From assembly GCA_002011475.1 (NCBI GenBank), contig MTNP01000037.1, positions 77,246 through 141,245 of the forward strand: a stretch of 64,000 nucleotides of DNA, written 5' to 3'. This document shows, piece after piece, positions 23,603 to 60,596 of the stretch (position 1 is the first letter of the stretch; every line of letters starts with the position of its first letter). The notes below the pieces were generated by a model. It was given only the letters and a program-made list of their open reading frames with translations. It had not been told where the DNA came from and made no database searches. The translations under genes and the position numbers were made by a program. Source of the DNA: Dehalococcoides sp. JdFR-54 (lineage in GTDB: Bacteria > Chloroflexota > Dehalococcoidia > JdFR-54).

Positions 23603-24335
23603 GAAGGTGCCGGAGCTTGAGCTTCTGCCCATATCCCGGAACCAGGCGGCGGCTTTTGTCCGGGAGCACCACTACGCCAGGAAGCTGCCCTCTACCTGCA
23701 AGCTCTACCTGGGCGGCTTCACCAGGGAGGGCCTCATGGCGGTGGCGGTCTGGGGCTATGGGGTGCGTCCCCTGCACACCGCCAGGAAGCTGGTCATGGG
23801 GGCCAGCACCGCCGAATACCTGGAGCTCAACCGCCTCTGCGTCCACGATTCGCTGCCCAGGAACAGCGAGAGCCATTTCCTATCGCTTTGCGTGAAGTGG
23901 ATAGAGCAGAACATGCCCCAGGTGGAGTGGCTCTTCTCCTTCGCCGACGGCATCTACGGCAAGCCGGGCTATGTGTATCAGGCAGCGGGCTGGCTCTGCG
24001 TGGGCAGGATACTCACCGAGAGATATGTCCTCGCCGATGGCACCGTTGTCCATCCCAGGCTGCCCGTCACCCGAAACGGCACCAGAACCTGGGCCTTCAT
24101 GGTGCGCCACTATCCGGGGATCAAGCGCCTCTGGGGATACCAGTTCAAATATCTCAAGCCCATAGGCTCCAGCACCGACAAGAGGCACGTGCTGAGGCGA
24201 TTGCTGGCGTCACCTCAGCCGTATCCGAAACATGGCGACTGCGTGATTTACGAGGCGGTGGAGGGCTCGAGGGTGAGCCGCCGTGTTTCCTTCACGGAGG
24301 GGCAGGTTCGACTCCTGCCCACCGCTCCAGCTTGA
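23583..24335 (+). CDS. Mom-like acyltransferase-fold protein (candidate DNA-modification enzyme)
   Basis: ...ELNRLCVHDSLPRNSESHFLS...LFSFADGIYGKPGYVYQAAGWLCVG resembles the Mom/GNAT-like pattern (SFAD...G..G.vYqAagW). Confidence 0.4.
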   Translation: MSGRTTEKVPELELLPISRNQAAAFVREHHYARKLPSTCKLYLGGFTREGLMAVAVWGYGVRPLHTARKLVMGASTAEYLELNRLCVHDSLPRNSESHFLSLCVKWIEQNMPQVEWLFSFADGIYGKPGYVYQAAGWLCVGRILTERYVLADGTVVHPRLPVTRNGTRTWAFMVRHYPGIKRLWGYQFKYLKPIGSSTDKRHVLRRLLASPQPYPKHGDCVIYEAVEGSRVSRRVSFTEGQVRLLPTAPA

Positions 24336-24354
24336 AAAGCAAGGCCGAATTGCA

Positions 24355-25731
24355 ATGGCAAAGGCAATCGAGGAACTTCAGAAGGAGGCGATAGAGAGGC
24401 TGTCGAAGCAGTTCCATCGGGAGCTTACCCGCGCCTTTCGCACCGCCGCCCACAGGGTAATTGAAGCCCAGCGCAGGGACTGGGGACGAAGCATGGAGCC
24501 CTGGGAGCTGGGCAAGGTGGAGGGCAGTCTCAAGGCGGCGGACAAAGCCCGGGAAGCTTTGCTGAAGGAGCTACAAGCCCTGGTGGATAGGTTTATCCCC
24601 CGGGCCTTCCGTGAGGAGCGCAGAGAGGCCTTCTCCCGGGGCAGGTCGCCTCAGGTGGTTCTTGAAGAAGGGATGAGCTCCCTGCAGGAGCGGCCCCTTA
24701 CCGCCGCCGAGGAGCGGATGGTGCGTGCCCTGACCCGGTTCACCTACGAGACCTACAGGACGGTGGCCGCCGAGTGGCATGGCAGGGTGCGCACCACCAT
24801 CGCCCTGGGGGTGCTCCGGGGCGACGACATGCGCACCGTCTCCCGCAGGATAAGGGAGCAGACAGGAGTTCGCCTCTCCGACGCCGAGAGGATAGCCAGA
24901 ACCGAGACCGCCCGGGTCTCCCAGGCAGCCAGGATGGGGGAATACCAGAAGCGCCGTGTGGAGAAGCTGGACTGGATTCTGGCCGACCGTCCCTGCACCG
25001 TATGTGAGGACATCGCCAGGGGCAGCCCCTACGAGCGTGACAAGGTTCCTGCCCTTCCTGTCCATCCCCATTGCATGTGCGCCGTGGCTCCCGTGATTGA
25101 GGAGTTGCCCGAGCCGCCACCGCCTGAGAAGGACTGGGAGCCGAGAGTGATCAACGCTGGCTACTCCGAGCTGGAGCGGGCCAGGATCAACCGCCTGCTG
25201 GATAAGCTTCCCCAGGAGGACAAGGAGCGAATGATGGGCTACCTCGCCAGCGAGGAGCACTGCCCCGTCATCCTGCGCCCCGAGGACATGAGGCGGCGCC
25301 TGGGCTTCGACGCCGAGGCCAAATACGGCAGGGACTACAGGCCCTACGTGGACTGGGCGGGGCTCTACGAGCCCTCCACCAACCGGGTGTGGGTGCTTCC
25401 CGAATACAGGGACCACGCCCTCGTCCACGAGATAGGGCACCAGTACTACTGGCACGGCGTGTCGGCGGGGAGGCGCAGCAGCCTGGTGCTGAACCGGAAC
25501 TACGAACTCTATCAGAAGGCGAAGGCGGCGGGCAGAGCGGTGACCGACTACGCCCTCACCAACGAGCGGGAGTACTTCGCCGAGGGTGTCAAGTTCTTTA
25601 TCCAGGACCCCCGCCGGCTGCACCAGAGGGATATTGCTATGTATCGCTTCTTGAACGAGCAGGTGTTCCCCGGCACCTACAAGAGGCTGCCCCGGCCAGG
25701 GGCGAAGCTCCAGGAGGTCCAGGTTGGCTGA
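24355..25731 (+). CDS. head morphogenesis (SPP1 gp7/Mu F-like) protein with a C-terminal zinc-metalloprotease-like domain (HEIGH)
   Basis: Position after the portal. C-terminal ALVHEIGHQYYWHG zincin motif. Confidence 0.5.
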   Translation: MAKAIEELQKEAIERLSKQFHRELTRAFRTAAHRVIEAQRRDWGRSMEPWELGKVEGSLKAADKAREALLKELQALVDRFIPRAFREERREAFSRGRSPQVVLEEGMSSLQERPLTAAEERMVRALTRFTYETYRTVAAEWHGRVRTTIALGVLRGDDMRTVSRRIREQTGVRLSDAERIARTETARVSQAARMGEYQKRRVEKLDWILADRPCTVCEDIARGSPYERDKVPALPVHPHCMCAVAPVIEELPEPPPPEKDWEPRVINAGYSELERARINRLLDKLPQEDKERMMGYLASEEHCPVILRPEDMRRRLGFDAEAKYGRDYRPYVDWAGLYEPSTNRVWVLPEYRDHALVHEIGHQYYWHGVSAGRRSSLVLNRNYELYQKAKAAGRAVTDYALTNEREYFAEGVKFFIQDPRRLHQRDIAMYRFLNEQVFPGTYKRLPRPGAKLQEVQVG

Positions 25732-26038: not shown

Positions 26039-27174
26039 TAAGGGTTACTTTCCTGGGCACCAGAGCCGAGGTGGAAATACCTCAGGAGGGCCACGACGAT
26101 CCCCAGTGCCAGGAAGCCCGTCGCCTGGGTAATGACTACTACCATAAGCTGCATTCCTCCCTGCTCATTGAGGCAGAGGGCAGCAGGCTCATGCTCGATG
26201 CCGGGGAGGGGCACGAGGAGATGGTGGCCAGGGTAAAGCCCGACGCCATCCTGGTCACCCATGCCCATCCCGACCACCTCTCCAGAAGGCTGGAAGCCCT
26301 TGAGCCTGCCATCCCCGTCTACATGAGCGAGGATACCGCCGAGGTTATCAAACTGCCCCACGAGCAGGTATTTCCTGAAGACAAGCCCTTTGAGGTGGCG
26401 GGGTTCAAGGTGGTGGCCCATCCCGTTGTCCACTCCCTGGTGGCCCCAGCTGTTTGCTTTAAGGTGTCAAAGGGGGACTTCACCCTGGTCTATGCCCCGG
26501 ATGTGGTCTCCATACCCGACCGCCAGCACTTCCTCAAGGGCGTTGACCTCTACATCGGCGATGGCTCCTCCCTTACCAGGGACATCATCCGCCGCAGGGA
26601 CGATAAGCTCATCGGGCATGCCAGTATGCTCAGGCAGCTTCGCTGGGCAGAGGGGATGAAGCAGGTTCTCTTCACCCATGTGGGGCACCTGAAGAAGACC
26701 GAGGCCGATGTCAACCAGGCCCTGCGCATCGCCTCCGATGGGAGGGCCCGCCTGGCCCGGGACGGGATAAGCCTGGAGTTTGAGAGCCTCCAGGTCACCA
26801 TCGAGACCATTGCCCCGGTTCTGGCTCCAGCTATCCCCACCAGAGCTGAGCCTCAAGACCTTATCCAGGATGCAGAGAGCTACGATGCCTCTGCCCCCAG
26901 GGATGACCAACTCAGGGACGACTGGCGCATCGTCTGCGGCTGGTATGCCACCCTGAAGAGCGGCGGCGACATCAAGTTCGATGAGGCCACCATCGTGGCT
27001 CTGGGGCAGAAAATCCTCAAGGAGCTGCTGCGCCGCAAGCGGAAAGACCCCCTCAGTCTTTACCGCCCACCCCGGGGAGATGAAGGAGTATCCCAGGGAG
27101 CTCTACGAGCGCATCACCAGAGAGTGGGACCCAGAGGACAAAGCCTTCCTGGAGACCGAGCCGGAGGAGCTTGA
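26035..27174 (+). CDS. metallo-beta-lactamase-fold hydrolase (candidate nuclease)
   Basis: LVTHAHPDHL (HxHxDH) and further MBL motifs. The C-terminal ~30 codons overlap the next gene and look low-complexity, so the true stop is uncertain. Confidence 0.55.
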   Translation: MIRVTFLGTRAEVEIPQEGHDDPQCQEARRLGNDYYHKLHSSLLIEAEGSRLMLDAGEGHEEMVARVKPDAILVTHAHPDHLSRRLEALEPAIPVYMSEDTAEVIKLPHEQVFPEDKPFEVAGFKVVAHPVVHSLVAPAVCFKVSKGDFTLVYAPDVVSIPDRQHFLKGVDLYIGDGSSLTRDIIRRRDDKLIGHASMLRQLRWAEGMKQVLFTHVGHLKKTEADVNQALRIASDGRARLARDGISLEFESLQVTIETIAPVLAPAIPTRAEPQDLIQDAESYDASAPRDDQLRDDWRIVCGWYATLKSGGDIKFDEATIVALGQKILKELLRRKRKDPLSLYRPPRGDEGVSQGALRAHHQRVGPRGQSLPGDRAGGA

Positions 27175-30100
27175 GGCTACCACTGAGGGCATGAGCGAAC
27201 TGGAAGAGCTTGCCAGGCAGCCCTTTGGCTCCCCTGGCGGCAAGCTGTGGATGGCACCCCGGATAGCCTCCCTGATACCACCACACAGGATATATGTGGA
27301 GCCCTTTGCCGGGGCTGCCGCCGTCTTCTGGGCCAAGGAGCCGTCTGAGGTGGAGGTGCTGGGCGACATCGACCCCGAGGTGATGTTCGCCTATCGCTTC
27401 ATCCAGAGGGCATCCTCCAAGGAGATAGCCCGGCTCAGGCGCTACGAGTGGCGGCACAGGAGGGACCTGTTTGAGGAGTTGAAGGCAGCCAGACCGAAGG
27501 ACGAGGTGGAGCGCTTCCGTCGTTTCCTCTACCTGCGAAAGGCAAGCTACGGCAGCCGGGGCGTCAACTTCATGGAGGCCAAGCGGGAGCGGGCCATCAG
27601 CCTGGACAGCTTTGAGAGGTGGCAGGAGCGGCTCAAGGGGGTGCACCTGCATACTGGCTCCTATGAGCAACTGCTGGACAGGTATGACGGCCAGGATGCC
27701 TTCTTCTACCTTGATCCCCCATACCCTGGCCACTGGCAGGGGGAGGAGCACGGCTTCACCCAGGAGCAGTGGGATGGCCTCATAGAGAGGCTGAAGAGGC
27801 TCAAGGGTAAGTTCATCCTGTCTCTGTTCAAAGACCTGGCGGGGACGCTGCCCTCTGGCTGGCATACCAGGCGCATCAAGACCCACCGCGCCCTGGGGCA
27901 GGACGATGCAGGCAAGGTGCTCTTCCACTACGAGTACCTGGCGGCCAACTTCCCCCTGGGCGGCAAACTGGAAGCAGAAGACGGACAAGTAGAAGACTTG
28001 CGCTGGGGCGCCAACCAGCCCTTCGGCAGCCCCGCTGGCAAGACCTATCTGGCCAGGCGCATCGCCGCCATGCTGCCTCCCCACAAGACCTATGTGGAGC
28101 CCTTCGCTGGTGGGGCCGCTGTCTTCTGGGCCAAGGAGCCGGTGGAGAGGGAGGTGCTCAACGACATCGACCCCGAGATAGCTTTCGCCTACCGCTTCCT
28201 GAAGAAGATGACCCCGGAGCAGTTCGCCCGCCTCAAGCGCTTCGACTGGGAGCGCCGGCCGGACAAGTTCGAGAAGGTCAAACGCTCAAAGCCCAGGGAC
28301 GAGGTGGAGCGGTTCCATAAGTTCTACTACCTCACCCTGGCCAGCTTTGGCCATGCCCGCAACACCTTTGGCTGGGGCAAGGGCGGCAATGTCATCGACA
28401 TAGACAAGCTGGAGCGCTACACCCAGCGGCTCAAGAACGTGGCCATCCACAACGAAGACTTCGAGCCGGTGGTGAGGCGCTACGATTCGCAGGAGACCGT
28501 ATTCTACCTCGATCCCCCTTATCCGGGCAGGGTGTTCCACGGGCCCCAGTTCACCCTGGAGGACCTGGAGCGGCTGATAAAGGTGCTCAAGGGCATCAAG
28601 GGCAGGTTTGTGCTCAGCCTGGGCACGGAGCATGAGAGGTATCTTCCGGAGTCCTGGTTCGTGAAGCGGGTCAAGGTGCAGCGCAACCTGGTGGACCCCA
28701 GGACGGGGAAGCCCATCCCCTCGGGCTTCGAGATACTGGCCGCCAACTTCACTCCCGGCAGGGAAAGCCTGGAGGCGCTGGAAACCGATGAAGAAGGCGA
28801 GGCCGCGCCCGACGAGGCGATGATCGAGCTCCCCGAAATTACAGACTTCATGGTGATACCCGACTTCATCAGCCTGGTGGGGAGCGCCGTCAAGGGAGAG
28901 GCGCCCAAAGACCTGGACATCCTCATCCGCTCGGCAGCCCGGAGCGAGAGCCTGGAGGTGGCTATCGGGAAGCAGCTTGACCCGGAGAAGCGGGGCTACC
29001 TCCACTTCATCTACGAGCCCGCTGGCCCCCACGACGACTACATCCCTCTGTGGGACCTGGTGGCTTTGAGGAAGCCCGGAATCGAGGTTGTAGAGGTGGG
29101 GCTGAGCAGAGCAAAGGGGCTCGTGCCCGGCAAGCCCTTTACTCCATTAAAGACGGCAGGCGGCTACGGGGAGCTGGAGTTCTCGGTGGACGCCGCCGAC
29201 AAGCTCTGGGAGACCTGGGGCCAGGGATACAAAGACGTGGGCCTCATAGTCCAGGAGAAGTTCGACGGCTACCGGCTCACCCTTCATCGCAAAGGCGACA
29301 GGGTCTTCGCCTTCTCCGAGGATGCCAGGCGAGATATTGTGAGCGCCCTTCCTGGCCTTGAGGAAGACCTCAAGGCCCTACCCGATGGCGACTTCATCCT
29401 GGATTCGGAGCTGCTGCTCTATGCCGAGGAAGCGGTGGAGCTTAATAACCCATACAAGCCCGGCGACAAGATAGAGCGCATGGACATGGCTTCCTTTCTG
29501 GGTAAAAGCCCGGCGGCCAGGTTCCGCGCCCTCTGCCAGGTTTTCGATTGCCTCTACCTGAACGGCGAAGACCTGCACCAGAGGCCCCAGACAGAGAGGC
29601 TGGAGGCGCTGCATAAGCTGCTGAGCCCGGTGGACACCCTCCACCTCAAAGAGGTGGAGAGCAGGCTGGTCCGCAGCAGGGAGGAATTCTTGAAAGCAGT
29701 CAAGTGGGCGGCCTCCAGGCCACACAGCGAAGGGGCCATGGTGAAGGTGGCCGACTCGGACTACCCCCTCACTGGACGCTCCAGCACGATAGCCAAGCTC
29801 AAGAACTTCAAGGAGATAAGGGGCAGGGTGGTCAGTAAGCGGAAGACCGAAGCAGGTGCCTACGTCTATGAGATCGCTCTCTCCGACGGCTCGGTCATCG
29901 GCTCCACCTATGCCACCAGGCTGGAGGCGGAGGTGGGCGACATCCTGGAGGTGCGCGCCGCCGAGATTAAGGTAAAGGAGGAGGATGGCAGGAGGGTCTT
30001 CACCTGGGATAACCCCATCGTGGTCAGCATAAAGCCAAAGGGAACGGCCCTCACCACCCCGGAGCAGGCCGAGGCGATGGCCAGGAAGCGCAGGGGCATG

Positions 30101-30934
30101 ACGGCAGAGGAAGAAGGCGAGACCAGAAGTGAAGCAGCGGAGAGGTTCTGGCGGGAGAACTGGCACAAGTCCTTCCCGCCCTCAGGCAAAGGGGAGTTCG
30201 TTTACCATCACCACTGGCGGGGGCTATCGGAGGAGGAGACAAAGCTATCTGAGGATGAGCTTCTCAAGACCGACCACTCGGTGCATGGTGACCTGAGGTT
30301 GCAGTTTTCCGACGAAGCCCTCTTTGGCTTCACCGTTTTCCTGGGCACCACCGATGAGATGGGGGAAGCTGGCGGAGACCGGTTGGCGAACCTGCCGCCT
30401 GACGATAAGCTCCAGGGGGCCTGGAAGCTGCAGCAGCCTATCGCCTGGCTCAAGGTAGGAAGGGAGAAGCCCCTGGTCACCGCGCCTGGTGAGGTGGGAG
30501 CTACCTCGGAGAAGTATTCCAAGTTCTTCGCCGAGGACTGGGGCACCTACGAGATAGGCGTATGGCGGGAGCACTTCTTCGAGCTTTTCCTTCATGGCAG
30601 GAAGCTCAAGGGGCGCTACACCATCCAGTATGCCCCACTGGGTGGCAGGAGGGTATGGCTCATCGGCAAGCCCAAGGACCAGACGCCCTACGCTGAGGCT
30701 CACGAGCTTGAGGACGTCGTTAAAGAGCTGAAGGGCAAAGGACAGAGATACCTGGTGTGGGCCAGGCCGGGCGAGGAGCCCAAACTAATCGAGGTTGGAA
30801 AGGCCGAACAGCTAACCTGTCCCAAATGCGGGGAGACCCTGGACCCGGGAACCACAAGGCTGGCAAAGCTGAGCGATGATTTCCACGATGTGTTCCGCTG
30901 TGCTCATTGTAGGCACATTTTTAGTCCAAGTTGA
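27080..30934 (+). CDS. multidomain fusion: two tandem Dam-like (D12-class) N6-adenine methyltransferase domains + ATP-dependent DNA ligase (KFDGYR) + LigD-like 3'-phosphoesterase domain + C-terminal zinc ribbon
   Basis: FGSPGGKLWMAPRIASLIPPH...FYLDPPYPG (nt ~27220-27760) and FGSPAGKTYLARRIAAMLPPH...FYLDPPYPG (nt ~28020-28540). Ligase motif I LIVQEKFDGYR at ~29245. PE-like HHHWRG...HGDLRL...DWGTYEIG...LFLHGRKLKGRY at 30180-30700. CPKCG...CAHC at the end. Confidence 0.75.
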   Translation: MKEYPRELYERITREWDPEDKAFLETEPEELEATTEGMSELEELARQPFGSPGGKLWMAPRIASLIPPHRIYVEPFAGAAAVFWAKEPSEVEVLGDIDPEVMFAYRFIQRASSKEIARLRRYEWRHRRDLFEELKAARPKDEVERFRRFLYLRKASYGSRGVNFMEAKRERAISLDSFERWQERLKGVHLHTGSYEQLLDRYDGQDAFFYLDPPYPGHWQGEEHGFTQEQWDGLIERLKRLKGKFILSLFKDLAGTLPSGWHTRRIKTHRALGQDDAGKVLFHYEYLAANFPLGGKLEAEDGQVEDLRWGANQPFGSPAGKTYLARRIAAMLPPHKTYVEPFAGGAAVFWAKEPVEREVLNDIDPEIAFAYRFLKKMTPEQFARLKRFDWERRPDKFEKVKRSKPRDEVERFHKFYYLTLASFGHARNTFGWGKGGNVIDIDKLERYTQRLKNVAIHNEDFEPVVRRYDSQETVFYLDPPYPGRVFHGPQFTLEDLERLIKVLKGIKGRFVLSLGTEHERYLPESWFVKRVKVQRNLVDPRTGKPIPSGFEILAANFTPGRESLEALETDEEGEAAPDEAMIELPEITDFMVIPDFISLVGSAVKGEAPKDLDILIRSAARSESLEVAIGKQLDPEKRGYLHFIYEPAGPHDDYIPLWDLVALRKPGIEVVEVGLSRAKGLVPGKPFTPLKTAGGYGELEFSVDAADKLWETWGQGYKDVGLIVQEKFDGYRLTLHRKGDRVFAFSEDARRDIVSALPGLEEDLKALPDGDFILDSELLLYAEEAVELNNPYKPGDKIERMDMASFLGKSPAARFRALCQVFDCLYLNGEDLHQRPQTERLEALHKLLSPVDTLHLKEVESRLVRSREEFLKAVKWAASRPHSEGAMVKVADSDYPLTGRSSTIAKLKNFKEIRGRVVSKRKTEAGAYVYEIALSDGSVIGSTYATRLEAEVGDILEVRAAEIKVKEEDGRRVFTWDNPIVVSIKPKGTALTTPEQAEAMARKRRGMTAEEEGETRSEAAERFWRENWHKSFPPSGKGEFVYHHHWRGLSEEETKLSEDELLKTDHSVHGDLRLQFSDEALFGFTVFLGTTDEMGEAGGDRLANLPPDDKLQGAWKLQQPIAWLKVGREKPLVTAPGEVGATSEKYSKFFAEDWGTYEIGVWREHFFELFLHGRKLKGRYTIQYAPLGGRRVWLIGKPKDQTPYAEAHELEDVVKELKGKGQRYLVWARPGEEPKLIEVGKAEQLTCPKCGETLDPGTTRLAKLSDDFHDVFRCAHCRHIFSPS

Positions 30935-31042
30935 TAGAGGTGCTTCACTGCGCAAGCGCCATCCTGTTTTTTGTGCACTCTAGTAGAAAGACCTATGTCC
31001 AGTGAGCAACCACCAAGACAGAGTCAGCTACTTAAAAGGCTA

Positions 31043-33529
31043 CTACGATACTGACACTGACGCTTTCCAAATGCTTGTTGGAATTGTTACCCTTTCTTTC
31101 TTACCTACTGCAGCAGGATCCTTCACTAAATAGATATTGGGGTTCTCTGGTATTTCAGACACCACACAGAGGTAGAAGGAGTTCCTGTATTTGTCCGCCG
31201 TCTCTGTCTCGTTGCGATCTAGCTCAACATCTCGATCGTGGCTTAGTCCCTTGACTTCTATACGCATAGTTTCACCGCTGTGAGTCTCCGCTTCTATATC
31301 GTAACCGAAGTTCCTTTTATCCACTGGTTTGACGTTTCTATAGGCCGCTTTTAGTTTTTCTATAGCATAATTCATGGCAAATTCTTCCACGCCATTATCA
31401 GGGTCATCCTTGATTCCTCCGTTTTTGAGGAATTGCCGCCATGCTCTTAACTGGTCGTCATTCGTAACGCCAGTAAGATAGTCCACGCTCAGAAAATTGA
31501 GGCCAGATACATATTGCTGACGAGTTTCCCAGTCTCTCTCAGGTTTGAACTCCTTGGGGAAAAACACTTCTCTCGCTGCTCGCACCTCGCCTTGCTTTGT
31601 AAGAACCCAGAATTCCAAGCCTCTCCCGACTTCCTCTCCAAGGATTCGCTGGCATTGAATGGTATATAGTAGCAGGTCGCGTGGCGTAGGTTTGGGTGCA
31701 GTGGTTAAAATCCTGGGTAACAAAGCCTCTTTACAGACTGTGTTCGCGTCTAAGACCGGCACACCGGTCAATCCTGTGAGGAAGCCTCTAATATTTTTCC
31801 GTTCTTCTTCGCTCTTGGCTCTCCCCAGAATATCCGGGTGTAATATTGACCTAGACTTTTGCAGGGTTTCGGTTACATCCTTCAGAATGGGATCAGAGGG
31901 CTGGAAGTCGGGGAGCCATACATTCCTGCCTTCAAGAAGCTCTCCCTCTGCTGTCAACACGATCCTTGAGCTCCAGTAACCCTCCTGGTACCAATAGCCT
32001 TTTCTGCTATAGCTGCCACGCGGGTGCGTCTGGAGCCATAAATATAAGCTCCTGAACCACTCAGCCGCAGCAGAGCTTTTACATTTTTCCTCGAGGAATG
32101 CTTCGTTACTCAGTAGCCCCAGCCGATCTACTTTCTTGAAAGGTGACGAATCTGGTTCTACTACATCGGGAGCTATCACCTCCAAATCAGGTTGCCCACC
32201 CATAGCTGCCGCTATTTGGTCTTTGCTCAAGATACCCATACGTACAAGGTCATCAATGGCTTTCTGATCCTCGTTAACTTTTACTGCTTGTTTAGGCTTC
32301 GTCCAGCCTCCCTCTGCGGTGGGCACACACGTATCTTCTTCCAGATAGGTTTCTACTGGCTCAATCAGTTTAGGCCCGAATAGCTTGTCATGGGCTTCAA
32401 GGCCCTTCGACTTTGTGAACTCAAAGGCAGGCAGAAACTGGTACTTCCATGTCTTGTGATTCTTAAAACAGTTTATGGCCTCCTTGCATAGGTCAGCCAC
32501 CTGCTCTACTAGCCAGTGATTCCATTTCGCTTCATAGTTGATGGCCTCTCGTCCTGGCTGAACAAGAAAATCAGCTTGTATCGGAAACTTAGCGCCACTT
32601 CTTGCCTCACCCAACGGCAAAAAGGAGTATACGCCTCCATACATTGCCCCAGCCTGTAAAGGAGCGAGATTGCCTTCATTGTCAAGTGCAAAAGCTATGG
32701 CTATTTCTCTGCGAGTTACATTGGCTCTATATTCCTGTGTAAGCCTGTCTGCCTTCACCCAATCCGGCACTGAGCAAACTCGCCGGAAGAACCTGAACCT
32801 TTGCTCCTGCCCATTATGCCTGAGAGTTGTGATACCGTCCTCGCTTTCTCCGATGTTCTCCAGAGTCCAGGTTCGTCCGTATACCTCATCTACAATCTCT
32901 ATTCGCTTTAACCAGCGAAGGAATAGATATAGCTCGGTGCTCAGCCTTGTTACTTCCTGAAGCAGGGCTGAATAATAGGTCTCCTCCCTAAAAGGGATGA
33001 TGAACGTTGTCCTCTCGTGTTCGACGGCTTCCGAGGGTTGGTCAATCCAGATGGGTAAGACGTGCCATGGTGTGCGACTGGGGTCCTCCCACTCTTTATG
33101 GTTTCTGTCGAATTTGAATTGGAAGCCACCAGAATATACCTCAGGGCAATCAGTGACTTTAAAAACGGATTTGAATCCTATGCCCAGATATCCCAATGTG
33201 CCTTTTTCCGGCTTCTTTGATGACCTGATGCCACAGAGCGCCTTTACATCGTCTTGGTTAAAGGGACGGCCATTATGTATCACCTTTGCTCTATGCTGGT
33301 TAATTCTTACTTCGAACACACCGAGAGTCTCTAAACCCAAACCAGCATCCTCGGCATTCTGAAGTAGCTCAAGGACAAACCCAGAACTTCTCGTAAATAT
33401 GACTTGGGCGATCAATTTTAGAGCGTTAATATAATCGTCCCATATCCTTGTCCCTTTAGATGCTTTAATCTCCTCCTGGATAGTGTCTATAATTCTCTTT
33501 GCCTCGCGAGGATTCAAACCTACCGCCAT
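31043..33529 (-). CDS. GHKL-type (sacsin/MORC-like) ATPase with a C-terminal DUF3883/PD-(D/E)xK-like domain; low-GC moron
   Basis: N-terminal VLELLQNAEDAG (HATPase_c motif). C-terminal ...YDIEAETHSGETMRIEVKGL (D...E.K). Opposite strand to the flanking phage genes. AT-rich. Confidence 0.55.
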   Translation of the reverse strand: MAVGLNPREAKRIIDTIQEEIKASKGTRIWDDYINALKLIAQVIFTRSSGFVLELLQNAEDAGLGLETLGVFEVRINQHRAKVIHNGRPFNQDDVKALCGIRSSKKPEKGTLGYLGIGFKSVFKVTDCPEVYSGGFQFKFDRNHKEWEDPSRTPWHVLPIWIDQPSEAVEHERTTFIIPFREETYYSALLQEVTRLSTELYLFLRWLKRIEIVDEVYGRTWTLENIGESEDGITTLRHNGQEQRFRFFRRVCSVPDWVKADRLTQEYRANVTRREIAIAFALDNEGNLAPLQAGAMYGGVYSFLPLGEARSGAKFPIQADFLVQPGREAINYEAKWNHWLVEQVADLCKEAINCFKNHKTWKYQFLPAFEFTKSKGLEAHDKLFGPKLIEPVETYLEEDTCVPTAEGGWTKPKQAVKVNEDQKAIDDLVRMGILSKDQIAAAMGGQPDLEVIAPDVVEPDSSPFKKVDRLGLLSNEAFLEEKCKSSAAAEWFRSLYLWLQTHPRGSYSRKGYWYQEGYWSSRIVLTAEGELLEGRNVWLPDFQPSDPILKDVTETLQKSRSILHPDILGRAKSEEERKNIRGFLTGLTGVPVLDANTVCKEALLPRILTTAPKPTPRDLLLYTIQCQRILGEEVGRGLEFWVLTKQGEVRAAREVFFPKEFKPERDWETRQQYVSGLNFLSVDYLTGVTNDDQLRAWRQFLKNGGIKDDPDNGVEEFAMNYAIEKLKAAYRNVKPVDKRNFGYDIEAETHSGETMRIEVKGLSHDRDVELDRNETETADKYRNSFYLCVVSEIPENPNIYLVKDPAAVGKKERVTIPTSIWKASVSVS

Positions 33530-33549
33530 CGTTCCCCTCGTTCTGGATT

Positions 33550-33864
33550 CTAAAGGTACCCGAGTTCACGTAAAGCTCGAGCCACGCCATCCATGTCGGG
33601 CATTACCCAGTAAGCTCTCCTGCCACCCCTTACCGTTTCTCCTTCCTTCCTCAAAATTCCATATTTCTCAAGCATTCTCAAGCCAGGAAACCATCCGATC
33701 CTGTCCACAACCCAAGCACCAGCAAAGCTTCTACCTTCAAGCCTCTTAGCTTCGTCATAGCAACCTCTTACCACTTTAAGCCAGTCTACGTCAAAAACAG
33801 GGGGACCACCCTTTGCTTTGAAGGGGTGGTCTTGTGCTAATTTCATTACGCCCTGATAGCTCAT
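33550..33864 (-). CDS. hypothetical protein, co-directional with and upstream of the GHKL protein
   Basis: 104-aa ORF, 20-nt gap to the GHKL gene. Confidence 0.4.
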   Translation of the reverse strand: MSYQGVMKLAQDHPFKAKGGPPVFDVDWLKVVRGCYDEAKRLEGRSFAGAWVVDRIGWFPGLRMLEKYGILRKEGETVRGGRRAYWVMPDMDGVARALRELGYL

Positions 33865-34050
33865 GTTTGCCTTTAGACAGTGAGATTTGCTTCTGTCAGT
33901 GTAAGCAGCAAGAGCCTGTCCCAGTTCCTATGTCACTTCAGCCAGGTGCCACGTAACCAAGGGGTCGTGCGAGTCTATCTTTCTGACATCCTGGCTCGGT
34001 CAAGGCCATGAGCGCCTGAGTCGCCGCAGAGCCCCTGACGAATTCGACCT

Positions 34051-34308
34051 TTATACCGCCACATACTCACGGATGTCCACCTGGACGCCAGCGCGGGCAG
34101 CTTCTTCTGCGGTCTGAAGGAGCCGCTCCGTGATTTCCTCCTCTACATACTCCTCCCCGCAGTTCGGGCAGACCCTCGCTGGCACACCCTTAATCACCAG
34201 GGTGGCGCCATCCCGCTCCAGGGTCACTGTAGCCTTGCCGGGACGGGTCTCCGCTTGCCTACAAATAACGCACTTCATTGTCTCCTCCTTCTGAACCCGG
34301 GCTCCCAT
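34051..34308 (-). CDS. YgiT/MqsA-type zinc-finger antitoxin
   Basis: MKCVICRQAETRPGKATVTLERDGATLVIKGVPARVCPNCGEEY matches the YgiT zinc-ribbon pattern. Overlaps the upstream toxin gene. Confidence 0.55.
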   Translation of the reverse strand: MGARVQKEETMKCVICRQAETRPGKATVTLERDGATLVIKGVPARVCPNCGEEYVEEEITERLLQTAEEAARAGVQVDIREYVAV

Positions 34309-34559
34309 TGGGTCAGGTCAGGTTCATATACAGTGATTACAATAGTTTCCTGACCCTCCATGTTCTCCGCAGCTACCACATGGATAGGGCGTGATCCACG
34401 CCATCCGAGCACCAAGTGGCTCGGATAGGGAGTGTCGTTGGGATAATCCTCAATCACCTCTCCTGTCGATAGCACGTGGCGGACATCATCCACACTGATT
34501 CGGCGCTGAAACATACGCTGGATGGCGTGTACACGGAAAACCAGTCGGTCAAAGGTCAC
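34275..34559 (-). CDS. DUF4258-family toxin
   Basis: HAIQRMFQRRISVDDVRHVLSTGEVIEDYPNDTPYPSHLVLGWRGSRPIHVVAA...IVITVYEPD matches DUF4258. It is the toxin-first partner of the zinc-finger antitoxin. Confidence 0.55.
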   Translation of the reverse strand: MTFDRLVFRVHAIQRMFQRRISVDDVRHVLSTGEVIEDYPNDTPYPSHLVLGWRGSRPIHVVAAENMEGQETIVITVYEPDLTQWEPGFRRRRQ

Positions 34560-34809
34560 ACCCTTGCTCCCCCGAGGAGGTCGATCCGGCGATCACCGGC
34601 AAGGGATGGCCCAGTTTGAAGCCGACCAGAATCCAGTCTTCCAGGGTAGAGCGCAGTTCATCCTGGCACTCCCGCAGGGTGGTGCCGAAAGCCACCACGT
34701 CCTTGCACTGAGGAATTCGCCCTGAAAAGGTGCTGTCCACCAGCTTATCGTAGACTGCCTGGGACGAAGCCTGCTCTACATAGTCGGTAAGGACCAATTT
34801 CACACCCAT
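34549..34809 (-). CDS. HicB-like (UPF0150) antitoxin-fold protein; no HicA partner recognised
   Basis: ...IPQCKDVVAFGTTLRECQDELRSTLEDWIL resembles the HicB N-terminal domain. Confidence 0.35.
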   Translation of the reverse strand: MGVKLVLTDYVEQASSQAVYDKLVDSTFSGRIPQCKDVVAFGTTLRECQDELRSTLEDWILVGFKLGHPLPVIAGSTSSGEQGCDL

Positions 34810-35683: not shown

Positions 35684-35724
35684 GCTTCACACACATCCAT
35701 CACTCAGCTTCGCCAGGAAGTCAA
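35684..35724 (-). promoter_or_regulatory. conserved leftward promoter-like motif, copy A (gcttcacacacatccatcactc + ggaagtcaa)
   Basis: 22-nt block identical to 37996-38017. On the minus strand it reads TTGACTTCC...GAGTGATGGATGTGTG. Confidence 0.45.
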
Positions 35725-36487
35725 TAGCCTTCGAGGAGACTTGGTGAGGTCTCCGCTCGGCTAGCTCAAACCCTGCCAGCCCTTTGAGGCAGTTGTCCCT
35801 GGTGGCCTGGTAGCCGCAGCAGGGCTTGAGCGCCCTTACCTCAACATCCTCGCCCAGGACCGACCTGAGCAGGTCGGCCTGGGAGCCGAACCAGAGGGCG
35901 CCCCGCTCCATGTCCTTCGCCACCACCAGGGGCCGGTGGTTACGGCAGAGCCAGATGGCGGGCAGGCGCAGGTCGGCGAAGGCTATGGCGTAATCCCCCC
36001 TGAGCCTGGCCAGGGCTTTCCTGATCCCCCTGGGTCGCACCCTGCCGTTGCTATGGCGGCGCAGCAGCCGGAAGATCACCTCCGAGTCCACCTCCGCCGT
36101 AGCCCCCACCTCTGCTCTAAGCTGCCGATAGTTGTAGATGACGCCGTTGTGGACGCCGAGGATGGGCCCGGCCAGCAGGGGATGGTTGTTGCGGTTGTCG
36201 GCGGGGTCGCCATGAGTCGCCCACCGGGTGTGGCCCACCACGCCGACGGTGTCGTTGTCCACGGCGTCCAGCAGCTGCCAGAATTGGGGCTGCGCCACCA
36301 GCCTGGAGGCGGGGCCAGGCTGCTTGAGGTATTTCGCCACGCCTTGCTTGAGCACGAAGGCCCCCGCTGCATCCCTGCCCCTGATCTCGGTGGCTGCCAG
36401 CAGGGTGGCGAAGTCCTCCCGGATGCCCTCCAGCTCCTGCTCGCTCCTGTTTCGCCTGTCAAGAACGAATCCTGCTATTCCGCACAT
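35687..36487 (-). CDS. class-II (Ntn) glutamine amidotransferase domain protein
   Basis: Begins MCGIAGF (Cys2 nucleophile). ...GHTRWATHG..., NHPL. Start set at the ATG giving MCGIAG. Confidence 0.6.
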   Translation of the reverse strand: MCGIAGFVLDRRNRSEQELEGIREDFATLLAATEIRGRDAAGAFVLKQGVAKYLKQPGPASRLVAQPQFWQLLDAVDNDTVGVVGHTRWATHGDPADNRNNHPLLAGPILGVHNGVIYNYRQLRAEVGATAEVDSEVIFRLLRRHSNGRVRPRGIRKALARLRGDYAIAFADLRLPAIWLCRNHRPLVVAKDMERGALWFGSQADLLRSVLGEDVEVRALKPCCGYQATRDNCLKGLAGFELAERRPHQVSSKAIDFLAKLSDGCV

Positions 36488-36897
36488 GGTGCGCCTCCAT
36501 CGTAAAAGAGATATTTGCCATCCTGGACCTCCCGGGTGCTGAACACCCTGGAGCACATCCTGACCGAAGGCGTGTTGCTCTGCGCCACCAGCGACCTGAG
36601 CTGGCATCCCCTGGCGGCGGCCAGCTCCTTCTTGGCTTTCAGCAGGGCGGTGCCGATGCCCCGGTTCCTGAAGTCCCGCCGCACCACGGTGATGGAGTAT
36701 TTGCTATGCCCATTGGGGCAGGCCGTAAAGCTCAGGCCCACCAGCTCACCGTCGATGCGGTATTCCAGCAGGATGTCGCCCTCCGAGCCTCCCGCCTTGT
36801 AGTAGTCGAAGCTTTTCTGCCTTATGTGGCGGTCGCCGTTGGCCCGGATGAAGCCCAGGTGCTCTGGGCAGACCTGGCTAACCCTGGCAATCTCCAT
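36475..36897 (-). CDS. GNAT-family N-acetyltransferase
   Basis: VVRRDFRNRGIGTALL (motif A). Start at MEIARV. 13-nt overlap with the amidotransferase gene. Confidence 0.55.
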   Translation of the reverse strand: MEIARVSQVCPEHLGFIRANGDRHIRQKSFDYYKAGGSEGDILLEYRIDGELVGLSFTACPNGHSKYSITVVRRDFRNRGIGTALLKAKKELAAARGCQLRSLVAQSNTPSVRMCSRVFSTREVQDGKYLFYDGGAPCAE

Positions 36898-37150
36898 CCT
36901 CGTCCTCCCTGCCCAGGTAGCGGATGAGCTCCGCCCGCTCCAGGCTCGCCAGGAATCGCTCAGCAGAAACGGTATCCAGGGGCTTCCCGTAGACCATCTC
37001 CGTCCGCTCGGCCACCCGACCCTTGTATTCCCCCAGGCTGAGGTGTCTCTCAAACAGGGCCGAGCGCCTCATGGCCCTGACTACCTCAGTGGGGCTATCG
37101 CCACTGAAGCGGTCTCCAGTGAAGGTCATCTCGATAACTATCCTTGCCAT
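36878..37150 (-). CDS. hypothetical small protein within the amidoligase cassette
   Basis: 90 aa from MARIVIEM. Overlaps its neighbours. Confidence 0.4.
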   Translation of the reverse strand: MARIVIEMTFTGDRFSGDSPTEVVRAMRRSALFERHLSLGEYKGRVAERTEMVYGKPLDTVSAERFLASLERAELIRYLGREDEDGDCQG

Positions 37151-37152
37151 CT

Positions 37153-37977
37153 CTACACTCCCTTCCACACCAGCTTGTGGTGCTGAAATAGCCTCCGCTC
37201 CTCGGCGGTGAGCCCCAGGCCCCGGGCCAGCCTGTAGAGCGGGTTTCGGCGGGTCTCCATGGGCTTTATCCCCCGCAGCACCCTGGCCTCGCTGAGGCTC
37301 TTGAGCACCAGCCTCAGGCACAGGGTGACCCAGGCCTTGACATCGGCGGAGCTGAGGGTGCCGTCGAAGTAGCGGAACTCTATGGTGCCCCGGTAGTTGA
37401 AGCTGTGCAGGTTGAGGCCCCGGTAGCGGCTGGGGTGATACTTATGGCTGAATATGCGAGGTAGCTCCTGCCGGGGCACGCCATACCACCGCTCCCAGAA
37501 GCGCTTGAAGGTCTTGGCCTTCATCAGCCCATCGTAGTCGGTCTCCCGGCTGCGGTGGACCTCCTCGATGGGCTTGCAGTAGCGGTAGTGGTTGCCGTTC
37601 CTGCCCCGGTGCTCGGCGTCTCCTCCTCGGGCTATCTGGTAAATCCAGGGCTCGTAGGCCCTGGTGTTCTGCACCAGCCTCTTGATGCCCTCCAGGTCGA
37701 AGCCGCTACCGTCCACGTGGATGTGAATGCTGCACCGCTCGCTCACCCTGGCCCCGTGGCGCTTGAGCAGGCTGAGCACCCGCTCTATCTGGCCGAAGTC
37801 GCCCAGGGTCAATGGGGGCGATACAATCTCGCAGCCGTCGTGCAGGCTGCCGTCGCTGGCTACCTTCCAGCCTCCTGGCAGGGCAAGCTCCCGCCGGGCT
37901 CGCTCGGTGGAGATGCCTTCCACCTCTATCTCCACCCCGAACCGGCGGCTGTCTATGGTGGCACTTCGGTTTGTCAT
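37153..37977 (-). CDS. putative amidoligase (PF12224-like, glutamine-synthetase-like fold)
   Basis: GVEIEVEG...WKVASDGSL...CEIVSPPL...CSIHIHVD matches the amidoligase family signature. Confidence 0.6.
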   Translation of the reverse strand: MTNRSATIDSRRFGVEIEVEGISTERARRELALPGGWKVASDGSLHDGCEIVSPPLTLGDFGQIERVLSLLKRHGARVSERCSIHIHVDGSGFDLEGIKRLVQNTRAYEPWIYQIARGGDAEHRGRNGNHYRYCKPIEEVHRSRETDYDGLMKAKTFKRFWERWYGVPRQELPRIFSHKYHPSRYRGLNLHSFNYRGTIEFRYFDGTLSSADVKAWVTLCLRLVLKSLSEARVLRGIKPMETRRNPLYRLARGLGLTAEERRLFQHHKLVWKGV

Positions 37978-37995
37978 CTCCTTCCTCCGAATCTG

Positions 37996-38037
37996 GCTTC
38001 ACACACATCCATCACTCTGAATCTGGAGGAAGTCAAG
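37996..38037 (-). promoter_or_regulatory. conserved leftward promoter-like motif, copy B (upstream of the amidoligase)
   Basis: gcttcacacacatccatcactc-10nt-ggaagtcaag, followed upstream by gtctttcc as in copy D. Confidence 0.45.
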
Positions 38038-38168
38038 TCTTTCCAGAGCGAATCTGCGGAGGCTCCAGAAAATCCGTTCTGCCTGTTGTGCGTCCGAAAA
38101 GTATTGCTAATGTCACACTTCTCTTGACAAGCGCAGGAGATTTGATATGCTTAGAGTGGGGGTGTGAC

Positions 38169-38702
38169 ATGAAACAAAAAGCGATTTACTTTAGGGCTTC
38201 ACCCGAGCTTGCTTCCCGGGTCAAAGAGCAAGCTGCTAAGAAAGGTGTTTCAGCCAGCGCCGCTGTAGCGGAGTTGGTAGAGGTAGGACTCGAATTTGTG
38301 GACAAGCAGGGAACTATCGAGGACCTTAAGAAGTCCTTGGAGCAAGAGAGGCACGCTCGGAGCATTGCTGAGGGAGAAGTTCAGAGGCTACGGAGGGAGA
38401 AGCAGCAAATACAGGAAGAGACTGGACGGAATTTGCGTATGCTACAAGATTCGTATAATGGGCTGCTTGGACATCTACGCGTGACCGACTTGGCTGTCTG
38501 CCCAAGCTGTCGCCAGATTCTTAGTGCCTACGACGTTATTATCCAAAGAAGGTGCTCCCAATGCAGCATAGCTGTTAGCTTGGGGTCAGTGGCAGATCCC
38601 CAAAGACCTGGCCCGCTGATTAGGGACTTGTTGGCAGTTGTCGGCGGAATAGCAGTATTTGCCGGTATTGTGAACGCCTTGTCTAACAGGGATTCGGCCT
38701 AG
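38169..38702 (+). CDS. ribbon-helix-helix (Arc/MetJ-like) N-terminal domain protein with Cys-rich and hydrophobic C-terminal regions
   Basis: MKQKAIYFRASPELASRVKEQAAKKGVSASAAVAELVEVGL. Candidate promoter TTGACA(38114)-16nt-TATGCT upstream. Low GC. Confidence 0.45.
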   Translation: MKQKAIYFRASPELASRVKEQAAKKGVSASAAVAELVEVGLEFVDKQGTIEDLKKSLEQERHARSIAEGEVQRLRREKQQIQEETGRNLRMLQDSYNGLLGHLRVTDLAVCPSCRQILSAYDVIIQRRCSQCSIAVSLGSVADPQRPGPLIRDLLAVVGGIAVFAGIVNALSNRDSA

Positions 38703-38902
38703 GAGCTTGGGTCACCAGTGGATGGTCGAGAGAAAAGTAGGGCATATAGTTCTCCAAATGCTACTTTTTGACACCACAGTGGGGAACAATTGGCCATTGC
38801 AGGTCATTTTTTGCCTCCCGGTGGGGAGCAGAATGCACACTTTGGAGTGGTGACCCAGCCGCCGGATTTGGGGCGACAATTGGTTGTAAATGGATGTAGG
38901 CC

Positions 38903-39820
38903 GTGTCGTTATTTCACTATGTGAAGGGACGGCTTCACCGCTTAGAGGCCCTAGGGGTGACCATCGGGCCTGGCTTTAGCCTGAGCAGGCTAAGGGGGCA
39001 CCTGGGCGACTTACTGCGGGCGGACTCTGAAGTCTCGCTTGCGGAGATAGTAGGGTCTAGGGTGGGCTATCGTCATGTCTACCTTTCACCAGGATCGCCA
39101 GGGTTTGGGGGTGACATTGATTTAGGCTTCATCCACCGCTCAGAGTATTATAGTGCACAAGTGAAGACCTTTGATATCATGAGCTCCTCCTTGGGCCAAC
39201 GTATTGCCCAGCTATCGAGAAACTTCGACGTTGGCTATGAAGGCTATGGCAACATTTTCTCTGACCGACTTTTTGTGGGCGATACACTGGCTGCTCAAAG
39301 CTTGCGCCGAGTGCCAGGCATTCCTCGGAAAGCAAGTATAGGGGTCGACCGATTCGAGCCATCCATCGAGGATTTGCTACGTGGCGTGTTAAAGATAAGG
39401 AAAGAACTCAGGGCAAAAAGCTGGCAACTCCGGAACGCCCCTGGCTACAAGCTTATTGTGTTCGACATGAGAAGGTCCCATATTGAGCCTGACTTGCTTA
39501 CGAAGACTGTGACCTACGCTCTGACTCATTCGCACGAGTTCGACCATTTGGCTTGCGTGGCCATGCTGTGGTATAACTTTCTGGCCAAAAGCGCTACTTA
39601 CGAAAGCGAAACAATGTTGGTTCCGCTTGCATTCAACGAGCGGTTTAAGTTCGACAGAGGCATCCTATTACCTGCCGTGCCCTATATTCCCGCCAAAGTG
39701 ACCCCATTTACTCTGCCCACACATATGGAGTTCCTCAAAACGGGTTGGCAGAATCTCTTTGCTGTGGAGAAAGGTGTCATCACTATAGATGGCGTGGAGT
39801 ACGGGCCTCTTTTTAGGTAG
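38903..39820 (+). CDS. hypothetical protein (low-GC moron)
   Basis: 305-aa ORF, no recognisable motif. Confidence 0.45.
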   Translation: MSLFHYVKGRLHRLEALGVTIGPGFSLSRLRGHLGDLLRADSEVSLAEIVGSRVGYRHVYLSPGSPGFGGDIDLGFIHRSEYYSAQVKTFDIMSSSLGQRIAQLSRNFDVGYEGYGNIFSDRLFVGDTLAAQSLRRVPGIPRKASIGVDRFEPSIEDLLRGVLKIRKELRAKSWQLRNAPGYKLIVFDMRRSHIEPDLLTKTVTYALTHSHEFDHLACVAMLWYNFLAKSATYESETMLVPLAFNERFKFDRGILLPAVPYIPAKVTPFTLPTHMEFLKTGWQNLFAVEKGVITIDGVEYGPLFR

Positions 39821-41090: not shown

Positions 41091-41362
41091 GCGAGCCCCT
41101 TGAGGAGCTAACCCAGGTCTTGAAAGAGACCAGAGAGATACTGGCCCGGCTCTCCCAGGAGAACCGGGAGCTTAAGGAAAAGCTGGAAGGCTCGCAGCGG
41201 GAGCTGGAGCGGCTGAAGAGGCCCCTGCCCCGAAAGACGAGCCCCGAGTCCAGGGAAAGCGTGTCCCTGAGCCAGGCCGTAGAGAGCCTGAAGGATTCAC
41301 GACAGGCCACCGAGCTTGCCGTGGAGACCATCATCGAGTCAAGGAGGAGGGGGCTGCTATGA
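41087..41362 (+). CDS. hypothetical coiled-coil protein (scaffold or decoration candidate)
   Basis: 91 aa. ATGA overlaps on both sides. Confidence 0.4.
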   Translation: MSEPLEELTQVLKETREILARLSQENRELKEKLEGSQRELERLKRPLPRKTSPESRESVSLSQAVESLKDSRQATELAVETIIESRRRGLL

Positions 41363-60510: not shown

Positions 60511-60596
60511 CTGAGGCTCGTTGTCACTTAGCCGCTACAGGCGAAGCAGATCATATCTAGCGTCATTCCGCTTGTGGGAGATGGAGGGATTAACAG

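Follow-up and report, generated by a model that had tools for sequence, protein, structure and literature searches.

A compact TmtA-like GHKL ATPase-nuclease gene as putative defence cargo of a Dehalococcoidia prophage

Tiamat is a defence system (Millman et al. 2022; PADLOC models PDLC03964-03972) whose protein, TmtA, joins a sacsin-type GHKL N-terminus to a C-terminal NOV_C domain and is encoded by a single gene without a fixed partner on mobile elements (PMC12629846); a PD-(D/E)xK domain in Tiamat was also noted in a survey (bioRxiv 10.1101/2024.10.26.620412). Here we describe a predicted compact relative of TmtA, a protein of 828 amino acids (aa) and 94.6 kDa (HEX77140.1, annotated as 'DUF3883 domain-containing protein [Dehalococcoidia bacterium]'). 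Its gene lies at 31043..33529 on the minus strand of a 64,000-nucleotide (nt) stretch of Dehalococcoides sp. JdFR-54 (contig MTNP01000037.1, positions 77,246 to 141,245), hereafter the window, and the region around it is a prophage in a Dehalococcoidia metagenome-assembled genome. The protein resembles TmtA in its sacsin-type GHKL N-terminus with identical catalytic residues, in its C-terminal NOV_C and, for the type represented by PDLC03972, in a shared region that extends up to about residue 700. It differs in its size, as TmtA proteins are 1,063-1,848 aa long and have an extra 500-1,000 residues before the nuclease, and in its carriage by a Dehalococcoidia prophage. We estimate at roughly 0.6 the probability that it is a single-gene anti-phage defence nuclease carried as accessory cargo (a 'moron') of the prophage, where its predicted activity would most likely be superinfection exclusion in the lysogen.

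HmaA of the Hma system and YenY4I share with the window protein an Hjc-like PD-(D/E)xK C-terminus in which a D and an ExK are followed by a conserved Glu. In HmaA this NOV_C domain is coupled to an N-terminal NTPase and is a metal-dependent nickase required for defence against T4 (PMC11232893), and in YenY4I NOV_C is the catalytic domain (PMC6765204). Weak PADLOC matches to HmaA cover residues 713-791 of the window protein, but the motor or sensor of these systems is a Snf2 helicase (HmaA) or a set of PUA/DUF3427 modification readers (YenY4I), not a GHKL module. The DREN PD-(D/E)xK nuclease of SPARDA (short pAgo + DREN) is among the structural neighbours of the C-terminus, and the titles of the SPARDA entries refer to active complexes and to an activated filament assembly bound to double-stranded DNA, that is, to the nuclease in an assembled form; SPARDA, however, senses through a guide-RNA-directed Argonaute and has no GHKL ATPase, and the likeness seen is one of structure. 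Sacsin SR1 and Hsp90 share with the window protein the Bergerat fold, motif I, a glycine-rich lid, a conserved Arg in the next domain and a non-canonical motif II with Asn/His for Asp, whereas they are eukaryotic or housekeeping chaperones without a nuclease and the likeness in sequence extends over ~85 residues (E 4e-5, sacsin). Plant NO VEIN (NOV), the namesake of PF13020, combines a GHKL-type ATPase region with a C-terminal NOV_C as the window protein does, although this eukaryotic protein is very large, is nuclear and acts in development. The idea that conflict systems couple a GHKL ATPase to a nuclease or toxin is also met among the MORC/paraMORC GHKL ATPases, which have been linked to restriction-modification (Iyer, Abhiman & Aravind 2008, as relayed in PMC3710099); these belong to another GHKL clade, and neither a MORC nor a MutL model or structure is the best match to the window protein.

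Domain architecture and relationship to TmtA

Nine TmtA models of PADLOC match the 828-aa protein, the best being PDLC03972 (E 3.5e-97, 324.8 bits); this alignment runs over residues 11-711 and takes up positions 4-677 of the 1302 in the profile. Among full-length references, P0276 (1538 aa) covers positions 3-1649 of 1655 and the 1848-aa protein of the Burkholderia plantarii plasmid bpln_1p covers positions 9-1780 of 1782. Both SACS and NOV_C are recognized by Pfam in the window protein, and likewise in each of the seven reference proteins that were scanned; full-length TmtA begins with SACS and has NOV_C at its extreme C-terminal end. A BLASTP comparison of the window protein with P0276 yields 33% identity over residues 33-419 (1e-47) and 29% over NOV_C (1e-6). 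This homology at both ends, taken together with the partial coverage of the profiles, indicates that the 828-aa protein is a compact TmtA-like variant that lacks 500-1,000 central residues. The Tiamat family as defined by Millman et al. (2022) demanded similar protein size; the 828-aa protein falls outside that definition in length and coverage, and for this reason we do not file it as a plain member of TmtA. The initial annotation of this locus, made from the letters and open reading frames (ORFs), had connected GHKL-nuclease fusions to restriction-like defence through comparative genomics; because PADLOC places the protein in TmtA/Tiamat, the link to defence is stronger than that annotation knew.

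The N-terminal module, a sacsin/Hsp90-type GHKL (Bergerat) ATPase with an adjoining beta-rich part, is encoded by 32495..33394 on the minus strand (residues ~46-345). Pfam SACS matches residues 50-143 with 45.4 bits (cut-off 32.8), and the NCBIfam model of the sacsin N-terminal ATP-binding-like domain (P_loop_sacsin) scores 72.7 bits (cut-off 50). The string ELLQNAEDAG, which had been singled out as a Bergerat ATP-binding motif, occupies residues 53-62 and contains motif I (E54-x3-N58-x2-D61); motif II (H85-N86-G87) and the lid (G113-YL-G116-I-G118-FK120) follow, and a conserved loop, Q318-A-D320-FLVQPG-R327, lies after the GHKL module. An AlphaFold2 model of the full-length protein, built with 56 homologues, has a mean predicted local distance difference test score (pLDDT) of 87.8, and its only disordered parts are the loop 297-307 and the ATP-lid loop 103-113, whose low confidence is expected of a mobile lid. 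In a Foldseek search of the PDB with this model the leading matches were full-length Hsp90, TRAP1 and GRP94 (E as low as 4e-9), followed by sacsin SR1, all with a probability of 1.0; sacsin SR1 also accounts for the only solved structures reached by sequence (5v44). The best 50 PDB matches are members of the Hsp90 family, sacsin and GyrB, and neither MORC nor MutL chains are among them. Of the 'sacsin/MORC-like GHKL' label in the initial annotation, the GHKL fold is borne out by the model and can be narrowed to the sacsin/Hsp90 clade; the MORC-like assignment is rejected, both Pfam and NCBIfam naming sacsin.

Conservation was followed in 56 close relatives (54-77% identity) and in a distant set of 150 representatives of 50%-identity clusters with 12 long TmtA-type proteins. 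E54, N58, D61, G116, G118, D320, R327, D744, E758 and K760 are invariant in the close relatives. In the distant set E54, N58, D61, G113/116/118, K120, D320 and R327 are essentially universal (125-129 aligned, including the 12 long TmtA proteins), with E54/N58/D61 present in 125-126 of 126 aligned relatives and the lid residues G113, G116 and G118 in all 129. Motif II reads family-wide as N/H, then N/D, then G/E/A and not as DxGxG, its Asp being replaced as in sacsin. As judged by these positions, the GHKL module retains the catalytic Glu, the Mg-binding Asn and the glycine-rich lid. A catalytic Arg in the post-Bergerat domain has been proposed for sacsin by analogy with Arg380 of Hsp90 (PMC9880540), and R327 is a candidate for its equivalent.

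The C-terminal domain, encoded by 31046..31402 on the minus strand (residues ~710-828), is a NOV_C/DUF3883 domain of the PD-(D/E)xK nuclease type with D744, E758, K760 and E774. Pfam NOV_C (PF13020) matches residues 714-801 (E 2.6e-15, 56.7 bits, cut-off 22.1). In the full-length model D744 precedes a strand at 745-748, E758 and K760 lie within a strand at 754-761, and helices 713-729 and 772-784 flank them; in a second model, of residues 400-828 (pLDDT 94.2), the last ~120 residues were placed by Foldseek closest to the archaeal Hjc resolvases 2eo0/2wcz (template-modelling (TM) score 0.59-0.68, root-mean-square deviation 3.0-3.6 A), with the SPARDA DREN nuclease, I-Ssp6803I and PvuII/EcoRV as further neighbours, all of them PD-(D/E)xK enzymes. 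D744, E758 and K760 are kept in 94 of the 95 relatives with an aligned C-terminus. The model thus gives the C-terminus an Hjc-like PD-(D/E)xK nuclease fold with an intact D..ExK site, in agreement with the DUF3883/nuclease assignment that had been made from the sequence. Between the two enzymatic ends lies a conserved helical/mixed middle region (31403..32494, minus strand; residues ~346-709), which is confidently modelled (pLDDT >90) and common to some TmtA profile types. The search with the residues 400-828 model matched only the C-terminal domain and returned no PDB match for the middle region, which is a candidate substrate-sensing or dimerisation region. As a separate observation, P0150 (1101 aa; 55% identical to the window protein) has after NOV_C an extra C-terminal DUF3800 domain of the PADLOC candidate-defence family PDC-M04A, and is a natural fusion linking the family to another candidate defence module.

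Spread of the large gene and its low-GC cassette

A word-indexed search recovered 1,051 relatives, the best 120 of which are nearly all 800-860 aa long with both Pfam domains. An exhaustive search of cluster representatives recovered 6,786 at E<=1e-3 and 346 at E<=1e-30, mostly of ~800-860 aa, while forms of 1,450-1,620 aa matched there only over the first ~420 residues. In contigs drawn from one genome per species there are 42 loci, at roughly 50-64% identity, distributed over Dehalococcoidia, Chloroflexi, Ignavibacteria, Phycisphaerae, Planctomycetes, Acidobacteria, Verrucomicrobia, Nitrospira, Proteobacteria and several archaea; short forms also occur on archaeal plasmids, as in the case of an 810-aa Halosimplex protein. 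The GC content of the homologue is more than 0.03 below that of its flanks in 33 of 48 loci (median difference -0.046), and the opposite was seen in one locus only. Some copies adjoin genes for a DNA methylase, HerA or NucS, or lie between transposases and toxin-antitoxin pairs; others are found among genes of the diaminopimelate (DAP) pathway, between those for DAP-epimerase and DHDPS (locus L004), or between those for homoserine dehydrogenase and a PALP (pyridoxal-phosphate) enzyme (L009). Among 143 flanking ORFs at 38 loci no Pfam family was seen more than three times. The low-GC insertions, the scattering across phyla and the lack of a recurrent neighbour indicate that the family behaves as a stand-alone, horizontally mobile gene without a fixed partner. 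The initial annotation had raised the possibility that homologues are housekeeping proteins outside mobile or defence contexts, and this is borne out in part: many do lie between housekeeping genes, but they are present there as low-GC insertions.

In the window the gene belongs to a low-GC island at ~30,900 to 33,950, an acquired cassette that covers the 828-aa gene and a smaller gene for a 104-aa protein. GC is 0.474-0.485 over 31-34 kilobases and 0.59-0.64 in the flanks. The 828-aa gene has a GC of 0.476 and a third-codon-position GC (GC3) of 0.495, and the 104-aa gene 0.492 and 0.467, against 0.61-0.65 and 0.80-0.91 in the phage core genes (terminase, portal, MuF-like, capsid-like); the AT-richness that had been noted for the large gene is therefore real, and the gene is phage cargo of foreign composition. 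This contrast in GC and GC3 points to a recent acquisition of the cassette from a lower-GC source. An independent metagenome copy (L069) has 74% DNA identity to window 33868..31057 and none beyond, a span of exactly the two genes, and the same cassette here and in L069 suggests that the 104-aa gene was acquired together with the 828-aa gene. Around the island in the window a search for repeats and att-like sites found only short chance-level repeats, the two longest inverted repeats nearby falling in zinc-ribbon coding sequences. In L069 the cassette lies between 50-nt direct repeats (70-119 and 3325-3374) that are 84% identical; this repeat was absent from the window and from every other fetched locus, and could be either a signature left by insertion or a repeat of the host's intergenic DNA.

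The smaller gene (33550..33864, minus strand; HEX77139.1) encodes a basic protein (isoelectric point 9.6) that gave no match in Pfam (E<=1), PADLOC or NCBIfam. Its family is small, with 28 clusters and 42 metagenome loci, none of them in IMG/VR. A profile of 29 relatives matched the PadR-like structure 3l7w weakly in the PDB, over the recognition helix and wing only; the match (E 0.058) is suggestive though short of significance, and the protein is probably a small PadR-like winged-helix transcription regulator of the cassette. A likeness to the anti-CRISPR AcrIE2 (profile, E 0.3) was treated as noise.

A tblastn search of the 43 other genome and viral loci that hold a homologue of the large gene did not detect the small gene at any of them, and on this co-occurrence pattern we reject it as an obligate partner or antitoxin. 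Copies at least 70% identical to that of the window stand ahead of several kinds of cargo, so far TmtA-like genes of two divergent types, an operon with a Rad50/SMC-like ATPase and an unannotated operon of three genes with a GAGKT motif. The TmtA-like genes are 77% identical to the window gene in L069 but only 37% identical in L012, with L071 of the same type. The cargo of L063/L067/L068 consists of genes for proteins of 76 aa, 724-727 aa (a Rad50/SMC-like ABC ATPase) and 176-184 aa (at L063, 4503-7390, the proteins are of 76, 727 and 176 aa). In L016 (634-4911) the first cargo protein, of 942 aa, has the P-loop motif (GAGKT), and after it come proteins of 352 and 133 aa of unassigned family, the former coiled-coil-like; no PADLOC match and no PDB sequence match was found for the L016 proteins. 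Both the L016 and the L063-type operons are candidate defence operons. The small proteins ahead of unrelated cargo are 84-85% identical to that of the window, as against 78% ahead of the same cargo (L069), so that the 'upstream partner' of the initial annotation does not hold as a general partner of the large gene. The small-gene phylogeny is discordant with that of the cargo, and the DNA similarity between loci starts at the start codon and stops at the stop codon of the small gene. Similarity bounded by the ORF, along with this mismatch between identity and cargo, indicates that the small gene is a discrete portable module under purifying selection that has recombined with varied cargo on mobile elements. 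WYL-domain regulators accompany many different defence systems, and the pattern of the small gene resembles theirs.

Integrases or recombinases lie near several of the small-gene loci. A proteasome/Ntn-hydrolase-like gene (208-241 aa) directly precedes the homologue of the 104-aa gene in L063/L067/L068, L070, L077 and L079-L081, and a different gene of 279-291 aa is found upstream in L012 and L071; the repeated proteasome-like gene suggests a conserved flank of a mobile-element hotspot.

Proposed function and competing explanations

GHKL ATPases are ATP-operated dimerisation clamps. It is conceivable that the 828-aa protein idles in an open form in which the nuclease is inactive, until invading DNA, or a DNA structure or cue induced by a phage, meets the middle region. 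ATP binding would then close or dimerise the GHKL modules, as in Hsp90, MutL, GyrB and MORC. This closure would bring two of the C-terminal nuclease domains together as an active dimer of the Hjc type, and the dimer would nick or cleave DNA. Either the superinfecting genome would be destroyed or the infection aborted, and a prophage carrying the gene would exclude other phages from its lysogen. We put forward this gating by dimerisation, which is modelled on other GHKL proteins, as a tentative proposal. Still more speculative is a joint reading of the two genes, in which the 104-aa winged-helix gene would be a portable 'cassette head' before interchangeable defence cargo in mobile elements of the Chloroflexota and their neighbours, the ~830-aa form a separate minimal immune nuclease, and ATP-driven closure of the sacsin-type GHKL module the step that assembles the Hjc-like nuclease dimer on foreign DNA; we regard this combination as possible but doubtful.

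Several points weigh against a defence role. Only about half of any TmtA profile is covered, all nine profiles being 1,063-1,782 positions long; 500-1,000 residues of TmtA are absent from the 828-aa protein, and reviews describe the mechanism of Tiamat itself as unknown (PMC12926258, PMC10740426). Motif II of the GHKL module is a sacsin-like H/N-N/D-G instead of DxGxG and isolated sacsin SR1 has been reported to have low ATPase activity only (PMC9880540), so that ATP hydrolysis by the 828-aa protein is uncertain. The neighbours of the family are mostly housekeeping genes, those for restriction-modification, CARF-RelE, HerA and PADLOC PDC-S34 amounting to a handful, and enrichment in defence islands is thus not demonstrated. 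Carriage by phages is rare, being limited to one IMG/VR contig (L019), whose phage is unrelated to the window phage outside the gene, and one weak match among 50,697 GenBank phage records. Finally, the defence role of the compact form is argued from homology, and the dimerisation and its trigger are conjectural.

The same distribution could be taken to mean that the gene is a selfish mobile nuclease, inserting autonomously in a homing-like or addiction-like manner with no benefit to prophage or host. Homologues that are single low-GC genes within housekeeping operons (L009, L004), the patchy, cross-phylum occurrence, the PD-(D/E)xK homing endonuclease I-Ssp6803I among the fold matches and the direct repeats around the L069 copy all fit such a gene. 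Nevertheless, at ~830 aa, with a conserved ATPase and a 360-aa middle region, the protein is far above the known size of homing endonucleases; the insertions lie between genes rather than within introns or inteins, the window island is not bracketed by repeats, and by sequence the protein is most strongly related to the models of a defence family that has been validated. We consider this unlikely. The smaller gene raises a different prospect, in which the 104-aa protein would be the obligate inhibitor or activator of the nuclease in a two-gene toxin/antitoxin-like or sensor/effector system. The spacing of 20 nt, the common low-GC island and the recurrence of the pair in L069 (large protein 77% identical) and in L012/L071 (37% identical) are consistent with this, but it is made improbable by the small gene being found in 0 of 43 other large-gene loci, by close copies (84-85% identical) preceding the Rad50/SMC-like operon (L063/L067/L068) or the P-loop set (L016), and by the disagreement between the phylogenies of small gene and cargo.

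That the nearest fold matches of the nuclease are Holliday junction resolvases, that the gene is convergent with one for a 1317-aa Dam-like methyltransferase/DNA ligase fusion, and that several phage methyltransferases could mark the phage's own DNA might together suggest an enzyme of phage DNA metabolism, acting with the adjacent methyltransferase-ligase as an ATP-gated Hjc-like resolvase or nickase in recombination, replication or host-DNA degradation. This fits poorly with the foreign composition of the 828-aa gene (GC3 0.495), which the ligase-methyltransferase gene does not share (0.803), and with homologues that almost never occur in phages and that, in cellular genomes, are solitary and have neither a methyltransferase nor a ligase as partner, and it appears quite improbable to us. 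We give very little credence to an anti-defence or anti-exclusion factor of the T4 RIIA type, or to an Hsp90/sacsin-type chaperone, although RIIA proteins and the ATPase subunits of viral topoisomerase II head the viral structure matches, and Hsp90 chaperones those in the PDB. These matches reflect the shared GHKL module only (TM about 0.22-0.30), there is no sequence relation to RIIA (PHROGs gives an unnamed family only, E 0.009), and RIIA and Hsp90 lack the nuclease domain whose D/E/K residues are invariant in the window family.

If the 828-aa protein is the defence nuclease that we favour, it is a variant of an already known kind, defence cargo on a phage. Tiamat was validated as a defence system in 2022 and its mechanism is unsolved; since the compact form has both enzymatic ends within 828 residues, is confidently modelled (pLDDT 88-94) and belongs to a large natural family available for comparison, it may be an easier subject in which to study how a GHKL module gates an immune nuclease. 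It also shows which parts of TmtA are dispensable, and it would be a further example of prophage-borne defence cargo, here from Dehalococcoidia, whose phages have been little studied. The small portable gene may help to locate new defence operons, and if it does head interchangeable cassettes, it would point to at least one defence system yet to be characterised (L016) and mark a new type of hotspot for defence exchange. Should there be no defence role, the family would be a widespread selfish ATPase-nuclease and still of interest.

Prophage setting and other cargo

On the plus strand the prophage encodes the terminase large subunit (20880-22274), the portal (22271-23602), a MuF-like head protein (24283-25731) and a capsid-like protein (41359-42444), and a gene for a large serine recombinase is present at 4285-5994. 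The 828-aa and 104-aa genes are part of a leftward accessory block between the head genes and the capsid gene, the first part of which holds amidoligase, GNAT and glutamine amidotransferase genes, followed by a small toxin-antitoxin-like trio (HicB-like, DUF4258, MqsA-like) and then the 104-aa/828-aa pair. Both leftward ORFs are intact, lie 20 nt apart and begin and end exactly where the initial annotation had them; its remark that the large gene is transcribed against the structural genes also stands, as those flanking it are all on the plus strand.

A GAGGGG ribosome-binding site precedes the 828-aa gene. The 186-nt intergenic region 5' of the 104-aa gene (33865..34050, minus strand) is the presumed promoter/operator of the two-gene cassette, although a simple scan found no sigma-70-like consensus in it. 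At the other end, the intergenic region between the convergent 828-aa and methyltransferase-ligase genes (30935..31042) contains a GC-rich hairpin at 30939-30960 that has an A-tract and a T-tract at its opposite sides, a consensus match only, and may on this account be a bidirectional terminator; in the promoter and terminator scans matches were no more frequent than in shuffled sequence.

The convergent gene (26981-30934, plus strand) encodes the 1317-aa fusion of two D12 (Dam-like) adenine methyltransferase domains with an ATP-dependent DNA ligase domain and a C-terminal extension that ends in a zinc ribbon, and has phage-like GC. When relatives of this phage with an 'empty' site were sought through the 1317-aa protein, a single distant viral contig (L062) was retrieved, which matches residues 603-1272 at 31% identity. 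Directly upstream of the cassette, at 34051-34809 on the minus strand, the trio consists of three small overlapping genes, for UPF0150/HicB-like (86 aa), DUF4258 (94 aa) and MqsA-like zinc-ribbon antitoxin (85 aa) proteins. The cluster of Amidoligase_2, GNAT acetyltransferase and class II glutamine amidotransferase genes (35687-37977, minus strand) has phage-like GC and may form a pathway that modifies a small molecule, a peptide or DNA. Between this cluster and the capsid genes, at 37812-39820 on the plus strand, are two low-GC genes (296 and 305 aa; GC 0.52-0.54) whose products gave no meaningful family match.

The prophage carries further low-GC, defence-like cargo in the form of a TPR-TIR gene and a methyltransferase/deaminase-STAND island. 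The former (18639-19727, plus strand; GC 0.50, GC3 0.47) encodes a protein of 362 aa in which TPR repeats accompany a TIR effector domain of the CAP12/Pycsar type; the protein matches the PADLOC candidate-defence family PDC-S35 (E 9e-30). The latter, a low-GC (~0.50) block on the right side of the prophage (55619-63320, plus strand), looks like a defence island and comprises genes for an 893-aa fusion of N6-methyltransferase, HSDR_N and type I specificity domains (type I/IIG-like), for proteins of 373 and 363 aa with no family match, and for a 907-aa protein with cytidine-deaminase, NB-ARC/NACHT STAND and TPR regions, which had no PADLOC hit. Within the head-gene block a tRNA-Gly (TCC) at 24252-24329 on the plus strand overlaps the 5' end of the longest MuF-like ORF, and because of this overlap the true start of the MuF-like gene is probably further downstream.

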